A stretch of 64,000 bases of DNA from the NCBI GenBank assembly GCA_965197525.1, contig OZ240211.1, positions 768,001-832,000 on the forward strand. Reading direction: 5' to 3'. This stretch comes from Nitrosopumilus sp. Lineage in GTDB: Archaea > Thermoproteota > Nitrososphaeria > Nitrososphaerales > Nitrosopumilaceae. The notes beneath the pieces are model-generated. The model was not told where the DNA came from. It did not search any database and saw only the letters and a list, made by a program, of their open reading frames with translations. Shown here one piece after another: positions 10,177 to 51,113 of this stretch. How positions within the stretch are numbered: the stretch's first letter is position 1; each line of letters begins with the position of its first letter. The translations under genes and the position numbers were made by a program.

Positions 10177-10292
10177 GTGTTTACCTTATCACATTGTCTT
10201 GACGGGGTTTTATAGGTTTATGTAAAAAATTGATTTTAGACACATACAAATAGTACAAAAACGGGCGCTGTCAAGTTATAGAGACCTTATTT

Positions 10293-11531
10293 ATGAGGAT
10301 AGGCGTACATAAATGCCCCAAAATCATAGAATATTTGTTGAAGGCAGTAAAGTCAATAGCACAAAAATATACGCCAAACTCTGACCTAATGGATATGATG
10401 GCCACATTCACAGAAATGGTTAACCGTTGCATCAAGATAGGGTTAAAAGAAGACACACACAATATGAAAAGGCTATCATGTCTATGCTATCACGAATTGA
10501 GAGACTATGACGTTTTATCGTCATACAAACTAAATGCAATATCAAGGGCTGCTGGCATATTGGCAAACAGAAAACAGTCAATAAAACGTGGTGTTAAGGT
10601 TAGATACCCAAAGGTAACAAAGCCGTTTATCACTAATTGTTACGGTATAAAACACAATGGTGCACTACTCACAATCCCATACAAGAGTAGAAATCCAATC
10701 AACATCTTGTTAAACCCGCATACCCAAAAAATCCTGTCAAATCCTGCCTTGACAGTACGCTCGTTTTCATTGACTGCCTTTAGCATCAATCTTTGCGTTT
10801 CCAAGGAAACTGAAAGGATAAAATGCACCAAGACAGTGGGAATCGATAGAAATTTGAGGAATGTTACATGTGGCAATGAGGAGCAAGTAACATTTTACAA
10901 GACAAACAAACTGCTATCCATAAAAGAGAACACCATGCACGCCAGAGCCGGATTCCACAGAAATGATCGCAGAAAGAAAGGTCAATTCTGGAAGATAAAA
11001 CAGCGAAGAATGACCAATAGAACAAAACAATACATACACAGAATATCAAAAGATATTGTGGATAATGCCGTCAAAGAAAAGGCTGTAATCGTTCTAGAAA
11101 ACCTAAAAGGAATTAAAAAACTCTACAAAAAAGGAAATGGTCAAGGCAACAAATACAGGCGCAGATTAAACGGATGGCAATTCTACGAGTTACAACGCCA
11201 AATAGAATACAAAGCCCAATGGGTCGGGCTCCCGCCAGTCGAATATGTAGACCCAAAAAACACGAGCACGCAGTGTCCAAGATGCGGAAAGAAACTCCAA
11301 GAGGACATGCAACACAGTCGTAAAATGTCGTGTAATAATTGCGGATTGTACATGGACAGAGACATTGTAGCTGCCATGAACATATCGCGCAAACCGTCCC
11401 CTAGGTTTAGGGATAGTAGAGATGACATAGGTGAAGCGCAGTCCGGTGTTTTTGAACCGGTGATGATGGAACCCTGCATACCGGTAATCCAGATAGTCGA
11501 TATGTCAAAGTCGAGTGATAGGAGGATGTAA
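10293..11531 (+). CDS. tnpB: TnpB RNA-guided endonuclease (IS200/IS605/IS1341-type)
   Basis: RuvC motifs GIDRN (D), VLENLKGI (E) and MDRDIVAAMNI (D); Zn finger CPRC...CNNC. Real start is probably TTG at about 10338. Confidence 0.93.
   Translation: MRIGVHKCPKIIEYLLKAVKSIAQKYTPNSDLMDMMATFTEMVNRCIKIGLKEDTHNMKRLSCLCYHELRDYDVLSSYKLNAISRAAGILANRKQSIKRGVKVRYPKVTKPFITNCYGIKHNGALLTIPYKSRNPINILLNPHTQKILSNPALTVRSFSLTAFSINLCVSKETERIKCTKTVGIDRNLRNVTCGNEEQVTFYKTNKLLSIKENTMHARAGFHRNDRRKKGQFWKIKQRRMTNRTKQYIHRISKDIVDNAVKEKAVIVLENLKGIKKLYKKGNGQGNKYRRRLNGWQFYELQRQIEYKAQWVGLPPVEYVDPKNTSTQCPRCGKKLQEDMQHSRKMSCNNCGLYMDRDIVAAMNISRKPSPRFRDSRDDIGEAQSGVFEPVMMEPCIPVIQIVDMSKSSDRRM
11394..11525 (+). ncRNA. Predicted TnpB omegaRNA scaffold (E1); boundaries approximate
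   Basis: Overlaps the 3' end of tnpB; conserved in all five elements with covarying hairpins (here CCGGT-gtttttga-ACCGG). Confidence 0.55.
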
Positions 11532-11551
11532 CTTGTTAAATCAACAGGTAC

Positions 11552-12808
11552 CTATGACTTCACAGAACCGTTAACAGTGACTAGAACAGAGTCAGGCTCA
11601 GATAATGGTAAAAAATTATCAAGAGACTTCCATACAAAGGTCTCAATTGTGTATGTTCCAGAGGTTTTAGGAATCCAGGACTGCGATACGTCAATACGCT
11701 GCTCAGGTGGAACTTTACTTTGGAACCACGATAAAAACTCAATGGTCCCATCAGAGGCCTTTACTTGAAAGATGTAGGCAAATGGTTGTGATGCAACGAT
11801 GTCAGGGTTTGTTACAGAGCCAACCATCTGAAAGGGAGTATCCACAGATAAAGGTACGGTTATCGGTTCACCAAAACTATTAGACATTACAACAGGAGAG
11901 CTCTCAAGTTTGTTAAGATACAATGATTCGACTCTGATTGATGATTCAACAGATAAAGTATTAGACGAGTAAACGTTGGAGTCAGGTAAAGTGTGATCAT
12001 GATATCTTGCATATAGATGATCACCTGATTGCACATAGAGTCTATTGCCATTAGATGGCAGATGTTCAGACAGAGATACGGCAACAGTAAAAGAGCCAGA
12101 ATCAGCGGTTGTCTCAACTGCGCGTCCTATGATTCCTGCAACATCAGAATCTGTGTACATATGCACCATAACGGTATCAGGGAATTGAGGATTCAGATTC
12201 ATGTCAGGGTCAATGACACGAACTGTGATAGAATCAGCATTACTGCCATCTAAAAAAAAGACACCGTCATCATTATCATTATTATTATTATGATTATCCA
12301 TATTGCCATGCAAAAGTTCAATGATGCCAGTATTCCAAGCAACATTTACAGTATGTAAGAGCAAAACATCGTCTGCGAATTCAAATGATATGGTTATGCC
12401 TGAATCAGGCTCAACTTCTAGATAACCATTAGTTGGTCCGGTGCCACCGGTACGAGGTGTCGTATCATCAACACCATCACCATCAACATCATATGCAAAT
12501 CCAGTCAGGGTAACTTCTGCTGTAAAGATTCCAGAGTTTGCATCAGTTTCAACAAACCGGTAAGGCATAAGAGAGTGATCAGATGTTGCAATCTTGATTG
12601 GATGTGTGTCAGTATCCCCAATGGTATCAATCAGATATCGGTCAGTATTCCAGCTAGGTGATACGATCGTCATGTAGATTTTATCAGTCCAAGTATAGAT
12701 TGATTTGTCAGTAAGGATAGGAGCATAGGGATTGTAGTAATCAGGTATAGGCTCACCCTCATCTCCGAAGGCAGTAAAGAGAATAATCAGCGGAAGAGAC
12801 AAAAACAC
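11552..12808 (-). CDS. Secreted thaumarchaeal hypothetical protein (Ig-like/S-layer-like domains)
   Basis: Signal peptide; VETDANSGIFTAEV and VIDPDMNLNP motifs; C-terminal WIPKTSGTYTIETFVW. The last codons (GSVKS-stop) come from the E1 right TIR. Confidence 0.75.
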   Translation of the reverse strand: MFLSLPLIILFTAFGDEGEPIPDYYNPYAPILTDKSIYTWTDKIYMTIVSPSWNTDRYLIDTIGDTDTHPIKIATSDHSLMPYRFVETDANSGIFTAEVTLTGFAYDVDGDGVDDTTPRTGGTGPTNGYLEVEPDSGITISFEFADDVLLLHTVNVAWNTGIIELLHGNMDNHNNNNDNDDGVFFLDGSNADSITVRVIDPDMNLNPQFPDTVMVHMYTDSDVAGIIGRAVETTADSGSFTVAVSLSEHLPSNGNRLYVQSGDHLYARYHDHTLPDSNVYSSNTLSVESSIRVESLYLNKLESSPVVMSNSFGEPITVPLSVDTPFQMVGSVTNPDIVASQPFAYIFQVKASDGTIEFLSWFQSKVPPEQRIDVSQSWIPKTSGTYTIETFVWKSLDNFLPLSEPDSVLVTVNGSVKS

Positions 12809-12889
12809 GATATGTGTTAGAAGATATGAGATTTAACGTTTAGGAGACTAGGCTATGTTGTGTTATCGAGGGACAAGAGTAGAAATAAA

Positions 12890-13143
12890 GGTTCTGTTAA
12901 CCTATCGGAGCTTGGTTCATAATCTTATCGGTGTTAACTGTCGGGGCTTTTGGGCACAATCACTTCTGCTATTAAAGATATAAAGTAAAGGGTTCTGTTA
13001 ACTTATTGAGGAGTAATTCTTGCTGTTAACTGTCGAGAGGTCAAACCGTACCAAACCTAACACAAAATCCTGATTTTATTAAATGTAGAATATTTCTAGA
13101 TTCTGTTAAGTTACCGTCGCCTGATTCTTCCTGTTAACTATCG
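12890..13143 (+). repeat. Six direct copies of a TIR-like motif (CTGTTAACYRTCG) arranged as three pairs
   Basis: Motif cores at about 12894, 12931, 12995, 13023, 13103 and 13131; pairs recur about every 101-108 bp. Confidence 0.7.
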
Positions 13144-13158
13144 TCACCCGTCCTAAAA

Positions 13159-13633
13159 GGAATAAGAAAGTTGTACAAAAAAAAAGGAAATGGCCATGAT
13201 GCAGGCAGGATTTTGATGGAATGGTTTTTAATCCATAGGAAATAAATACAGACGCAGATTAAACAGCTGGCAATTCTACGAGCTACAACACCAAATACAA
13301 TACAAAGCCCAATGGGCAGGACTATCAGTCGAATTTATAGATCAAAAACACGAGCTCGCAATGTCCAAAATGCGGAAAGAAACTCCAATAGGACATCAAT
13401 ACAAACGAAAAATATCGTGTAATAATTGGGGATTGTTCGTGGACATAGATGTTATAGATGACATGAACATATCACACAAACTGTTCCCTAGGTTTAGGGA
13501 TAGTAGAGGTGACGTATATGAAGCGCAGTCTGGCACTTTGGTGCCGGTAATGTTGGAACCTGGTATAACACCACCAGTAATCCAAATAGTCGATATGTCA
13601 AAGTCGTGCAATCGTGGTTATGTCCCTCGATAA
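13159..13633 (+). pseudogene. tnpB: 3' remnant of tnpB including the omegaRNA region
   Basis: GIRKLYKK...RRRLNSWQFYELQHQIQYKAQWAGL through IQIVDMSKS, broken by frameshifts. Confidence 0.85.
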
Positions 13634-13650
13634 CACAACAGAACCGGAAA

Positions 13651-31894: not shown

Positions 31895-32009
31895 CACCAA
31901 TGCTGCAAGATGAAATCTGACAAATTTTTGTATTTACTTGTACGCAGATTCAAGTACAGTCAGTAGAGACAACATCAAGCACGGGTTCTGTGAAGTTATC
32001 GAGGGTTAA

Positions 32010-32143
32010 CCCCTATAAACTTGACTTTGACATATCGACTATTCGGATTACCAATGGTGTGCCGGGTTCCGTCATCGCCGGCTCAAAAGTGCCGGACTGC
32101 GCTTCATCTATGTCATCTCTACTACCCCTAAACCTAGGGGGCA
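32010..32143 (-). ncRNA. Predicted TnpB omegaRNA scaffold (E2); boundaries approximate
   Basis: Hairpins CCCCT-aggttt-AGGGG and CCGGC-acttttga-GCCGG on the minus strand. Confidence 0.55.
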
Positions 32144-33200
32144 GCTTGCGTGATATGTTCATGGCAGCGATAATATCCCTGTCCATAAACAAACCGCAAT
32201 TATTACACGACATTTTACGATGTTGTTGCATGTCCTCTTGGAGTCTCTTTCCGCATTTCGGACACTGCGTGCTCGTGTTTCTTGGGTCTACTGTCTCGAC
32301 TGGAGGCAACCCGACCCATTGGGCTTTGTATTCTATTTGGCGTTGTAACTCGTAGAATTGCCACCCGTTCAATCTACGTCTGTACTTGTTACCTTGACTG
32401 TTTCCTTTTCGGTACAATTTTCTTATTCCTTTCAGGTTTTCCATGACGATTGCAGTCTTGTTTTTGACTGCGTTGTATACCATATCCTTTGAGATTCTGT
32501 GGATGTACTGCTTTGTTCTATTGCTCATTCGTCTCTGTCTTTGTTTCCAGAATTGACCTTTCTTCCTGCGATCATTTCTGTGGAATCCTGCCCTGGCGTG
32601 TATTGTGTTCTCCTTTATGGATAACAGTTTATTTGTCTTGTAGACTGTCACCTCTTCCTCGTTCCCACACGTCACATTTCTTAGGTTTCTGTCTATTCCC
32701 ATTTTCTTGGTGCACTCTATCTCTTGTACTGTTTTTGAAACACAAAGACTGATGTTCAGAGCAGTCAATGAAAACGAGCGCACCGTCAAGGCGGGATCAG
32801 ATAGGATTTTTTGGGTGTGAACGTTGAGTAAAATGTTGATTGGGTTATGTTTCTTGTATGGGATTGTGAGTAGTGCACCGCTGTGTCGTATACCGTAACA
32901 GTTTGTCATAAAGGGATTTTTGACTATTGGGTCTCTTATTCTGACACCTCGTTTGATTGACTGTTTTCTGTTTGATAACATGCCTGCAGCTCGTGATATT
33001 GCATTTAGTTTGTATGAAGACAGGATGTCATAATTACGTAATTCATGATAACATAACATGGACAACCTCTTCATATTGTGAGTGTCTTCTTTCAATCCTG
33101 TCTTGATGCAATGATTGACCATCTTTGTGAATATAGCCATCATATCCATTAGATCAGAGTTCGGCGTATATTTCTGTGATATTGACTTTATCGCTTTCAA
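32013..33200 (-). CDS. tnpB: TnpB RNA-guided endonuclease
   Basis: RuvC D/E/D motifs (GIDRN, MENLKG, MDRDII) and Zn finger intact; near-identical to the 49072 copy. Confidence 0.93.
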   Translation of the reverse strand: MKAIKSISQKYTPNSDLMDMMAIFTKMVNHCIKTGLKEDTHNMKRLSMLCYHELRNYDILSSYKLNAISRAAGMLSNRKQSIKRGVRIRDPIVKNPFMTNCYGIRHSGALLTIPYKKHNPINILLNVHTQKILSDPALTVRSFSLTALNISLCVSKTVQEIECTKKMGIDRNLRNVTCGNEEEVTVYKTNKLLSIKENTIHARAGFHRNDRRKKGQFWKQRQRRMSNRTKQYIHRISKDMVYNAVKNKTAIVMENLKGIRKLYRKGNSQGNKYRRRLNGWQFYELQRQIEYKAQWVGLPPVETVDPRNTSTQCPKCGKRLQEDMQQHRKMSCNNCGLFMDRDIIAAMNISRKLPPRFRGSRDDIDEAQSGTFEPAMTEPGTPLVIRIVDMSKSSL

Positions 33201-33316
33201 CGAATATCTTACGGTTTAGAGGTTTATACAATTTAGGGATTAACAGATAACCCTCGATAACTTCACAGAACCCAAGCACGTAAATGATATATAACATATA
33301 TTGAATAGTTTTATAG

Positions 33317-35350: not shown

Positions 35351-35738
35351 GGTTCTGTGAAGTTATAGAGACCTGAAACATGAATGAATGAATATCGTTA
35401 ATTATATCATAATTATGTTGAATCCAACAAACACGAACACGCAATGTCCAGGATGCGGAAAGATATTCCAAGAGGACATGCAATACAGATGTAAAATATC
35501 GTGTACTAATTGTGGATTGTTCATGAACAGCAACAACATTGCCATGAACACATCTCACAAGCTGTCCCCTAGGTTTAGGGATAGTAGAGGTGACATACAT
35601 GAAGCGCAGTCTGGCACTTTTGAGCTGGCAATGTCGGAACCTAGTACACCGGTAATCCGAATAGTCGATATGTCAAAGTCAAGTAATAGGAGAAACACAC
35701 CTTGGTAAATCAACGGGTACCTATAACTTCACAGAACC
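35351..35738 (+). mobile_element. 388-bp miniature element E4 (TIRs plus tnpB 3' end/omegaRNA region) with perfect 8-bp TSD
   Basis: TIRs identical for 18 bp (21/24); TATAATCA duplicated at 35343-35350 and 35739-35746; the interior keeps only the Zn-finger/tail part of tnpB. Confidence 0.93.
35561..35692 (+). ncRNA. Predicted omegaRNA scaffold in mini-element E4
   Basis: Same conserved hairpins as in E1-E3. Confidence 0.5.
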
Positions 35739-48753: not shown

Positions 48754-48917
48754 TGATTTAGCAATAAATTTAGAGCATTATAACTTTTTGAATGCGATGA
48801 TTTCATTACAATTTTAATAGCAGTTCTAAGATCAGCATGATTAGACAAAAATGATCAAATTGACTCTGTTACCATTTGGAATCAATTCATCGTATCACCT
48901 TGTTGTTTTTAGCTCCA

Positions 48918-48967
48918 GATAACCCGACAGAACCATAAAATTCACATCCCCATAACGTTACAGAACC
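48918..48967 (-). repeat. Two orphan TIR-like sites (GGTTCTGT...TTAT) next to E3
   Basis: Plus strand GATAACCCGACAGAACC and CATAACGTTACAGAACC, 33 bp apart. Confidence 0.6.
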
Positions 48968-49071
48968 GTATATCCAATAAGGTAATTAATGAAAAAGAGG
49001 GTTCTGTGAAGTTATCGAGGGTTATCTGTTAATCCCTAAATTGTATAAACCTCTAAACCGTAAGATATTCG

Positions 49072-50265
49072 TTGAAAGCGATAAAGTCATTATCACAGAA
49101 ATATACGCCGAACTCTGATCTAATGGATATGATGGCTATATTCACAAAGATGGTCAATCATTGCATCAAGACAGGGTTGAAAGAAGACACTCACAATATG
49201 AAGAGGTTGTCCATGTTATGTTATCATGAATTACGTAATTATGACATCCTGTCTTCATACAAACTAAATGCAATATCACGAGCTGCAGGCATGTTATCAA
49301 ACAGAAAACAGTCAATCAAACGAGGTGTCAGAATAAGAGACCCAATAGTCAAAAATCCCTTTATGACAAACTGTTACGGCATAAAACACAACGGTGCACT
49401 ATTAACAATCCCATACAAGAAACATAACCCAATCAACATTTTACTCAACGATCACACCCAAAAAATCCTATCTGATCCCGCCTTGACGGTGCGCTCGTTT
49501 TCATTGACTGCTCTGAACATCAGTCTTTGTGTTTCAAAAACAGTACAAGAGATAGAGTGCACCAAGAAAATGGGAATAGACAGAAACCTAAGAAATGTGA
49601 CGTGTGGGAACGAGAAAGAGGTGACAGTCTACAAGACAAACAAACTGTTATCCATAAAGGAGAACACAATACACGCTAGGGCAGGATTCCACAGAAATGA
49701 TCGCAGAAAGAAAGGGCAATTCTGGAAACAAAGACAGAGACGAATGAGCAATAGAACAAAGCGGTACATCCACAGAATCTCAAAGGATATGGTATACAAC
49801 GCAGTCAAAAACAAGACTGCAATCGTCATGGAAAACCTGAAAGGAATAAGAAAATTGTACCGAAAAGGAAACAGTCAAGGTAACAAGTACAGGCGTAGAT
49901 TGAACGGGTGGCAATTCTACGAGTTACAACGCCAAATAGAATACAAAGCCCAATGGGTCGGGTTGCCTCCAGTCGAGACAGTAGACCCAAGAAACACGAG
50001 CACGCAGTGTCCGAAATGCGGAAAGAGACTCCAAGAGGACATGCAACAACATCGTAAAATGTCGTGTAATAATTGCGGTTTGTTTATGGACAGGGATATT
50101 ATCGCTGCCATGAACATATCACGCAAGCTGCCCCCTAGGTTTAGGGGTAGTAGAGATGACATAGATGAAGCGCAGTCCGGCACTTTTGAGCAGGCGATGA
50201 CGGAACCCGGCACACCATTGGTAATCCGAATAGTCGATATGTCAAAGTCAAGTTATAGGGGTTAA
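49072..50265 (+). CDS. tnpB: TnpB RNA-guided endonuclease
   Basis: RuvC D/E/D motifs and Zn finger intact; TATAAA at 49044-49049, about 25 bp upstream of the TTG start. Confidence 0.93.
   Translation: MKAIKSLSQKYTPNSDLMDMMAIFTKMVNHCIKTGLKEDTHNMKRLSMLCYHELRNYDILSSYKLNAISRAAGMLSNRKQSIKRGVRIRDPIVKNPFMTNCYGIKHNGALLTIPYKKHNPINILLNDHTQKILSDPALTVRSFSLTALNISLCVSKTVQEIECTKKMGIDRNLRNVTCGNEKEVTVYKTNKLLSIKENTIHARAGFHRNDRRKKGQFWKQRQRRMSNRTKRYIHRISKDMVYNAVKNKTAIVMENLKGIRKLYRKGNSQGNKYRRRLNGWQFYELQRQIEYKAQWVGLPPVETVDPRNTSTQCPKCGKRLQEDMQQHRKMSCNNCGLFMDRDIIAAMNISRKLPPRFRGSRDDIDEAQSGTFEQAMTEPGTPLVIRIVDMSKSSYRG
50128..50260 (+). ncRNA. Predicted TnpB omegaRNA scaffold (E3); boundaries approximate
   Basis: Conserved hairpins overlapping the tnpB tail. 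Confidence 0.55.
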
Positions 50266-50624
50266 CCCTCGATAACTTCACAGAACCAAAAAGAGACATC
50301 ATAAACATGCAAAGATTGTGTAGGTATGATCCAACTGGCAAAGGAACGCATTGTTTTTGTATAGATATTGACGCACAAAAAGGAATCAAAAAATGCTGTA
50401 AATGCAATCAATGGAACGTTCAGGGGAATGACTGGACTAGTAATGAAGATTTTAGATAAGTAAATGCACGAGATCACAGGAATGGAATAATCACGAACTA
50501 ATTCTCTGAATTGATACTAGGAGCTTTGTTTATGACATGTACGTATAACCGATAGGAGTACTGAAAACCCTCTCTTCATTCTATCTAATGGTTTTTATCA
50601 GGGATTCTTTGAATTTTGGATTAC

Positions 50625-51113
50625 TTGAGTACGCAGGAATATAGACATATAGTTAGAATTGTGGGAAATGATATCCCAGGAGAGAAGAAGGCGTTAATTG
50701 GACTGACTCAGATAAAAGGCATAGGATACAATTTTGCTACTGCAATTCTTGATACTATTAATATTAATACAAACTCCAATATCGGTAACTTGACAGATGA
50801 GAATGTGCAGGCAATTGAAAAATTAATCACAGATCCGTTAAGCGGAAATTTCCCATCTTGGTTTCTCAATAGAAGAAAAGATATTGAGACAGGGGCAGAT
50901 CTGCACCTATTGACGTCAGATATTCCATTCACATTAAGAAATGATATAGAACGAGAGAGAATAACTGCAAGTTGGAGAGGTTACAGACACATGAGCGGTC
51001 TAAAAGTCAGAGGTCAACGAACTAGAACTTCAGGCAGAAGAGGCGGAGCAGTAGGAGTCGCAAAGGGTGGACTGGTAGCGCCAGATAAGAAAAGCAGTAG
51101 CACAGGAGCATAG
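50625..51113 (+). CDS. rps13: 30S ribosomal protein S13
   Basis: GLTQIKGIG; [17 protein letters not shown] start at 50625. Confidence 0.97.

Follow-up and report, generated by a model that had tools for sequence, protein, structure and literature searches.

TnpB nucleases usually reside in IS200/IS605 and IS607 elements, and are generally held to bring back those copies of IS605 and IS607 that scarless excision has removed. A DDE transposon does not leave an empty site of this kind behind, so the reason why it should keep the nuclease is unclear. In the accessible part of Altae-Tran et al. 2023 (PMC10691335), six DDE-associated TnpB branches are described, all with inverted terminal repeats, together with solo TnpBs that have near-identical ends and are presumed to be mobilised in trans by DDE enzymes. 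A 2026 review (PMC13565253) gives ISL2, IS630 and IS1031 as the DDE partners of TnpB, IS6 not being named among them, and discusses why DDE transposons rarely keep the TnpB module. For the IS6 family, one passenger gene, two MITEs and no TnpB are recorded (PMC7986276), and the archaeal enzymes called 'IS6' are distant from IS26 and of unstudied chemistry (PMC6807381). Has a tnpB gene packaged between IS6-like ends already been catalogued? In part it has, since DDE-associated TnpBs with inverted ends have been in print since 2023, but the partners named for them are not IS6-like, and in the accessible portions of the TnpB and IS6 literature we found no paper naming an IS6-like TnpB partner or a nuclease-specific 3-base motif. 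Judged from the part of the 2023 study at hand, an overlap of the family described here with its branches DDE-1 to DDE-5 is possible.

The stretch analysed here, which we call the window, comprises 64 kb (positions 768001-832000) of a genome assembled as a single 2.21-Mb contig (C1), 99% complete and with 39.6% G+C, that encodes archaeal AmoA and belongs to an ammonia-oxidising archaeon. Window positions 49000-50287 are occupied by a 1288-bp element whose 25-nt inverted arms (49000-49024 and 50263-50287) are 100% complementary and whose tips start with GGTTCTGT, a sequence for which the window has 13 occurrences where 1.95 would be expected. These tips have the GG start and the cTGTt motif given for IS6 ends (PMC7986276). 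On both sides the element is bordered by the octamer AAAAAGAG, at 48992-48999 and, repeated exactly, at 50288-50295, as an 8-bp target duplication. The sole long ORF inside is tnpB, and its stop codon lies within the right repeat. The element and its immediate surroundings contain the following features.

48918-48934 and 48952-48967 (span 48918-48967), minus strand: two solo right-end remnants of related elements, within 179 bp that relatives lack
48989-48991, plus strand: ATG, the local instance of the flanking W-T-R motif and candidate TAM, directly 5′ of the left duplication
48992-48999, no strand: left copy of the 8-bp duplication AAAAAGAG, present as a single copy in relatives
49000-49024, plus strand: left terminal inverted repeat, 25 bp, beginning GGTTCTGT (100% complementary pair)
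49072-50265, plus strand: tnpB, 397 aa, the longest ORF (Pfam, NCBIfam, RuvC alignment, dN/dS)
50131-50244, plus strand: conserved structured RNA, a candidate omega-RNA scaffold over the tnpB 3′ end (covariation)
50249-50277, plus strand: hairpin specific to the right end, with the inner right repeat as its 3′ arm (single-sequence fold)
50263-50287, minus strand: right terminal inverted repeat, 25 bp (100% complementary pair)
50288-50295, no strand: right copy of the 8-bp duplication, presumed to supply guide nucleotides 1-8 (sequence match)

The history of the insertion can be read from related genomes. When the left flank, one 8-bp copy and the right flank were joined and compared with the loci of relatives, retrieved using the right flank, eight genomes of the same genus aligned unbroken from window position 48973 across a single 8-bp copy into 50296 and onward. 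Because these relatives are uninterrupted across the junction, 49000-50287 is shown to be a clean end-to-end insertion that produced an 8-bp duplication of the staggered-cut type. The adjoining 179 bp (48794-48972), which bear the two solo right-end remnants, are also absent from the eight relatives, so that this intergenic spot has been hit repeatedly. Downstream of the element lie a small conserved cysteine-rich ORF (50307-50459) and then ribosomal protein S13 (50616-51113). The insertion separates a conserved AT-rich box (ATAATTAA) from the ATG of the cysteine-rich ORF, which may be cut off from its promoter unless transcription of the element reads out into it.

The window contains three full copies (10264-11569, 31984-33272 and 49000-50287) and two 3′-end derivatives, so that the studied element is accompanied by four others.

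10264-11569, plus strand: full copy belonging to a different subfamily (82% aa identity), with a degenerate left end and without duplication
about 13232-13645, plus strand: 5′-truncated copy that keeps the RNA region and the right end
31984-33272, minus strand: another full copy whose repeats are identical, with duplication CAAGCACG and DNA 98.7% identical
35351-35738, plus strand: 388-bp deletion derivative that keeps both ends and the RNA region, with duplication TATAATCA

Upstream of the truncated tnpB, three to four IS6-like left ends (12890, 12991 and about 13100) stand head to tail with a spacing of about 100 nt within 12850-13160, each followed by a CTGTTAAC-type box.

Genome-wide, tblastn retrieved about 35 full-length tnpB genes, with 60-100% aa identity, and 14 fragments; a further 208-bp tnpB derivative recognised by eye brings the partial copies to 15 in total. 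Every one of these 15 keeps the tnpB 3′ end with the RNA region, and no partial copy consisting of the 5′ part only was found in the genome. Ends of the GGTTCTGT type, 1280-1372 bp apart, enclose all but one of the approximately 36 full-length tnpB copies, with a looser match needed at one end for two of them; for the one exception no left end was found. If a duplication is accepted when it matches at at least 7 of 8 positions, the genome has 31 end pairs with duplication, all with different duplication sequences, and tnpB or its 3′ end lies inside 27 of them. The 8-bp duplication is exact in the studied element and in 24 other full copies. About one third of the full copies lack it, among them C1:296603-297889, 598949-600235 and 642464-643751, in which both repeats are present. 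A search for flank exchange among the 15 copies without duplication, which was aimed at recombination or intramolecular replicative transposition and is uninformative on cointegrate-only movement, returned one 7/8 match, the chance level, and no partner flanks. Within the studied subfamily the copies share 97.7-99.0% DNA identity, subfamilies differ from one another by 16-30%, and the terminal repeats differ between subfamilies along with tnpB.

The product of tnpB matches Cas12f1-like_TNB in Pfam (4.5e-21) and guided_TnpB in NCBIfam (122.6 bits, cut-off 100). Its GIDRN, MENLK and DRD motifs align to the catalytic RuvC motifs of a solved TnpB-like nuclease, with the D/E/D triad intact. Between tnpB subfamilies, dN/dS is 0.08-0.15 and the protein is therefore under selection; with an aligned triad and a ratio of about 0.1, this TnpB looks functional. 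Public protein names offer only 'putative transposase'. A second TnpB clade, 30-33% identical, is found in similar repeats with 8-bp duplications. Up to this point the initial annotation has stood up well: it had described a 1288-bp element with perfect 25-bp repeats and a perfect 8-bp duplication, IS6-like tips, tnpB as the only cargo, an intact RuvC triad and five members in 64 kb, and the two comparisons it had called for, of empty sites in related genomes and of repeat pairs holding tnpB across the genome, came out in its favour.

Over roughly its last 130 nt, tnpB is conserved at the DNA level far more strongly than over the rest of the gene. Given 30 distinct aligned copies, drawn from three genomes, RNAalifold folded this region into four helices with 26 pairs, 13 of which show compensatory changes. 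In this structure 97.3% of cells are paired, compared with 28-39% when the partners are slid by 1-3 columns; the slid versions have 2-5 compensatory pairs, and none of 500 shuffles reached any of the observed measures. The paired region (50131-50244) thus resembles an omega-RNA scaffold, for which we consider it a candidate. No Rfam family matched the element at E up to 1. Between scaffold and tip, an interval of 40 to about 95 variable bases with the repeat included, a right-end hairpin makes use of the inner repeat, and a comparable hairpin is predicted in another subfamily, in both cases from single-sequence folds. The element is covered in four runs, two of them sponge metatranscriptomes and two without a recorded type, and contig depth peaks at 49883-50281, a summed depth that mixes copies and organisms and to which DNA in the libraries may contribute.

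Which enzyme moves the element? The Y1 transposase profile (PF01797), with controls that responded, gave no match anywhere in this genome, a single contig that is 99% complete, and the serine recombinase profile (PF00239) gave none in the whole genome either. DDE_Tnp_IS240 (PF13610) has eight matches in the genome, seven of them above the Pfam cut-off and five apparently intact. Each of the five intact transposases (374-460 aa) combines a SWIM finger, a zinc ribbon and a DDE domain. The partner enzymes reach 42-57 bits against PF13610 (cut-off 27), and the best NCBIfam match of the intact ones is the IS6 model NF033587, over its full length, at 103-121 bits (cut-off 125). On these profile scores the transposase is an archaeal IS6-like enzyme and not a bona fide IS6/IS26 member. 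The transposase elements share GGTTCTGT termini and 8-bp duplications with the tnpB elements. One of them, an autonomous 1970-bp element at C1:746475-748444 with 29-bp repeats and duplication CTATTGTG, has its first 18 nt identical to tnpB subfamily C. The two genes keep to separate elements: tnpB was not found inside any of eight bounded transposase elements, nor a DDE gene near tnpB in 60 tnpB loci examined with 1.5-kb flanks. Repeats of the resident transposase elements match those of the studied subfamily at no more than about 16-18 of 25 nt. The closest repeats, at 21/25 nt, are those of transposase element L027 of another species, and in the genome analysed here the studied repeat type occurs outside tnpB elements only as solo ends. 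In a genus sample of 81 genomes, the SWIM-DDE transposase is present in 31 and the tnpB family in seven, with both in six of these seven, a co-occurrence that counts only as supportive because related genomes are not independent. The tnpB family is rare in the genus, with a burst to about 35 copies here and in one close 2.5-Mb relative.

From this evidence we infer, with good support, that the tnpB element is mobilised in trans by a SWIM-zinc-ribbon-DDE transposase. The earlier proposal of a non-autonomous IS6-type vehicle mobilised in trans gains from the lack of Y1 and serine enzymes and from the presence of DDE transposases with the same termini, but its family label has to be loosened, the enzyme falling below the NCBI IS6 cut-off. 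In the same way, the IS6-family transposases with matching repeats that it had suggested looking for do share the termini, but resident elements match the studied repeats only in part.

Other IS6-like elements of the genome have different contents. A DNA methyltransferase-HNH fusion is the cargo of two of them, at C1:699962-703151 and about C1:920351-923763; the 475-aa fusion is intact in the second and frameshifted in the first. Between methyltransferase and transposase, at C1:921818-922420, runs a long 21-nt tandem repeat that is open in several frames. The left end at C1:920321, a candidate for the end of a transposase element matching tnpB subfamily C, is actually a neighbouring solo end and was rejected. 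At C1:883991-884841, an 851-bp element has perfect IS6-like repeats of 30 bp and the duplication TATTACTG; its only contents are short ORFs rich in lysine and glutamate, without transposase or tnpB.

A further regularity lies just outside the duplication. With the elements oriented by tnpB, we read the three bases directly outside the left (tnpB 5′-side) duplication. In this genome, the 27 tnpB elements with duplication have T at -2 (27/27), a purine at -1 (27/27) and, at -3, T in 20 cases and A in 7, that is, the motif W-T-R; the right side has nothing comparable. One element in genome G033 and three independent insertions in another genome, of 2.5 Mb, have it as well, which makes 31 of 31 tnpB copies with duplication in three genomes, on a background of 9% genome-wide and 15% in element flanks. 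Copies without duplication keep W-T-R on the left in 10 of 15 cases, so the right flank is the side that has changed. Elements of the second TnpB clade have TAT at the same position (3/3), and for this reason the strict part of the motif follows the nuclease, as expected of a TAM. Five other TnpB lineages of the order, with one example each, show mixed flanking triplets, in few cases. Without the insertion, the site consists of W-T-R, then the 8 bp, then the right flank; once it is occupied, the 8 bp at the right end follow directly on ACC, the repeat tip. The motif, clade-specific as it is, stands where a TAM next to the target must be, which is compatible with a TAM positioned for TnpB to cleave the un-inserted site.

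Taken together, we think it likely that this is an IS6-like non-autonomous element with an OMEGA cargo, moved in trans, inserted next to a TAM and using TnpB for homing or retention. The element would be a non-autonomous member of the archaeal IS6-like group, with tnpB and a guide-RNA scaffold (the OMEGA module) as cargo, and its insertion would be catalysed in trans by the SWIM-zinc-ribbon-DDE transposase encoded in a separate element with the same termini. Since transcription is proposed to run through the right end, the guide would open with the duplicated 8 bp and continue into the right flank; it is from the layout that we infer this probable position of the guide in the DNA beyond the right end. 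The empty allele would offer the TAM and the full target, whereas in the occupied allele ACC precedes the target and the repeat follows the left copy. With the target intact only in the empty allele, TnpB would cut empty sites only, and recombination at a cut empty site would copy the element back in. We propose here the same homing and retention logic that has been shown for IS605 and IS607. Nevertheless, a retention role is less obvious in this setting because IS26-type enzymes make cointegrates, without excision. In addition, the scaffold and the guide abut in ISDra2, whereas here 40 to about 95 variable bases would intervene, which counts against the explanation. We are more doubtful about a full coupling of the nuclease with the DDE enzyme, comprising TAM-adjacent insertions, the 8-bp guide start, RNA-guided homing or target choice and RNA-only derivatives that borrow both proteins, and consider it possible but tentative.

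How much of the flanking motif might the transposase alone explain? Were the element simply moved by its DDE enzyme, W-T-R would be an asymmetric target preference of the transposase, and TnpB and its RNA would have no link to the insertion site. Indeed, the 19 transposase-only elements are rich in T at the corresponding positions, with W at -3 in 18/19 and T at -2 in 12/19 on one side and no bias on the other, and their biased side has the kind of subterminal sequence seen at the tnpB-proximal left end. Because these elements too are one-sidedly T-rich, part of the motif may be transposase preference. At -1, however, the purine of all 31 tnpB elements compares with 7/19 in transposase-only elements, in which T is commonest (10/19); L027, whose repeats are like those of the studied subfamily, sits at ATC; the second TnpB clade has its TAT within similar repeats; and W-T-R is located exactly at the position required of a TAM. 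On balance, a transposase preference with TnpB unlinked to the site seems unlikely to us as the whole explanation. The differing motifs of the two TnpB clades could come from the different transposases used, and the strict adjacency of the motif could result from a loose T-rich bias of the transposase plus selection, or from site choice aided by TnpB.

A more active part for the nuclease, in which TnpB and its RNA, bound at the element end, recognise the TAM and direct the DDE transposase to a cut right next to it, would suit the observation that W-T-R is strict even in the youngest copies (98-99% identical), which simple survivorship explains poorly. We know of no TnpB that steers transposase targeting, the protein-protein contact is hypothetical, and the RNA-guided transposons known so far insert at a distance of tens of bases from their PAM, unlike the steering considered here; we hold it to be improbable. 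Least credible of all, and in our judgement very nearly negligible, is a single landing of an IS1341-type tnpB unit, self-moving, in an unrelated inverted-repeat shell. The IS200/IS605 and IS607 setting in which TnpB is commonly met would favour such a landing, but all but one of the full tnpB copies are enclosed by GGTTCTGT-type ends, repeats and tnpB diverge jointly into subfamilies, the genome has no Y1 or serine enzyme, and the same arrangement of tnpB in repeats occurs in five further families of the order. The enclosure of nearly all full copies and the missing enzymes also speak against an internal IS605 unit that moves independently of the repeats, an outcome against which the initial annotation had asked to check its own claim. 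The trans-mobilised IS6-like element with an OMEGA cargo is thus the reading that we retain.

If the full coupling considered above were true, a replicative-type DDE transposon would gain RNA-guided homing, or even TAM-assisted target choice. The family offers a tractable natural case: young copies stand by the dozen in one complete genome, the transposases have elements of their own, the guide-RNA scaffold is backed by covariation, and there are RNA-only derivatives and a clade-dependent 3-base motif one duplication length away. What it adds to the systems already known is a clade-specific candidate TAM, the RNA-only derivatives and a clean separation of transposase and nuclease elements. It also supplies compact archaeal TnpBs with a short candidate TAM, and thereby enlarges the pool of possible editing enzymes.

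Compared with known systems, the closest resemblance is to the DDE-associated TnpBs (PMC10691335), which, going by the accessible part of that paper, have inverted repeats, a tnpB 3′ end within 250 bp of the tip and solo members presumed to be moved in trans. There, the DDE gene adjoins tnpB in some members, whereas here the two were never found in one element, and the partners named are IS630, ISL2 and IS1031, whereas here the partner is IS6-like. IS1341-type units of the IS200/IS605 group share the size of about 1.3 kb, tnpB as sole gene, a scaffold over its 3′ end and, 5′ of the insertion, a short motif, but they depend on Y1 and have neither inverted repeats nor duplication, in contrast to the 25-bp repeats, the 8-bp duplication and the absence of Y1 here. 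Their motif abuts the element, while ours lies 8 bp from it, and IS200/IS605 elements have subterminal hairpins instead of the perfect 25-bp terminal repeats of the studied element. IS607 uses a serine recombinase TnpA, of which this genome has none. With IS6/IS26, the common features are the GG..CTGT tips (IS257-like), the 8-bp duplication and the DDE_Tnp_IS240 domain in the partner elements; unlike them, the studied element has no transposase of its own, the partner enzymes are 374-460 aa long with SWIM finger and zinc ribbon and fall below the NCBI IS6 cut-off, and the partner elements are 2-5 kb long with cargo. Fanzor is likewise a TnpB homologue on DDE transposons with inverted repeats and duplications, but in that case the TAM includes the 5′ duplication, and the 3′ duplication falls within the scaffold (PMC13565253), whereas here the 8 bp are arbitrary and the candidate TAM lies outside them. 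With OMEGA systems, finally, this locus has in common both an intact RuvC D/E/D triad and a structured RNA over the 3′ end of the gene.
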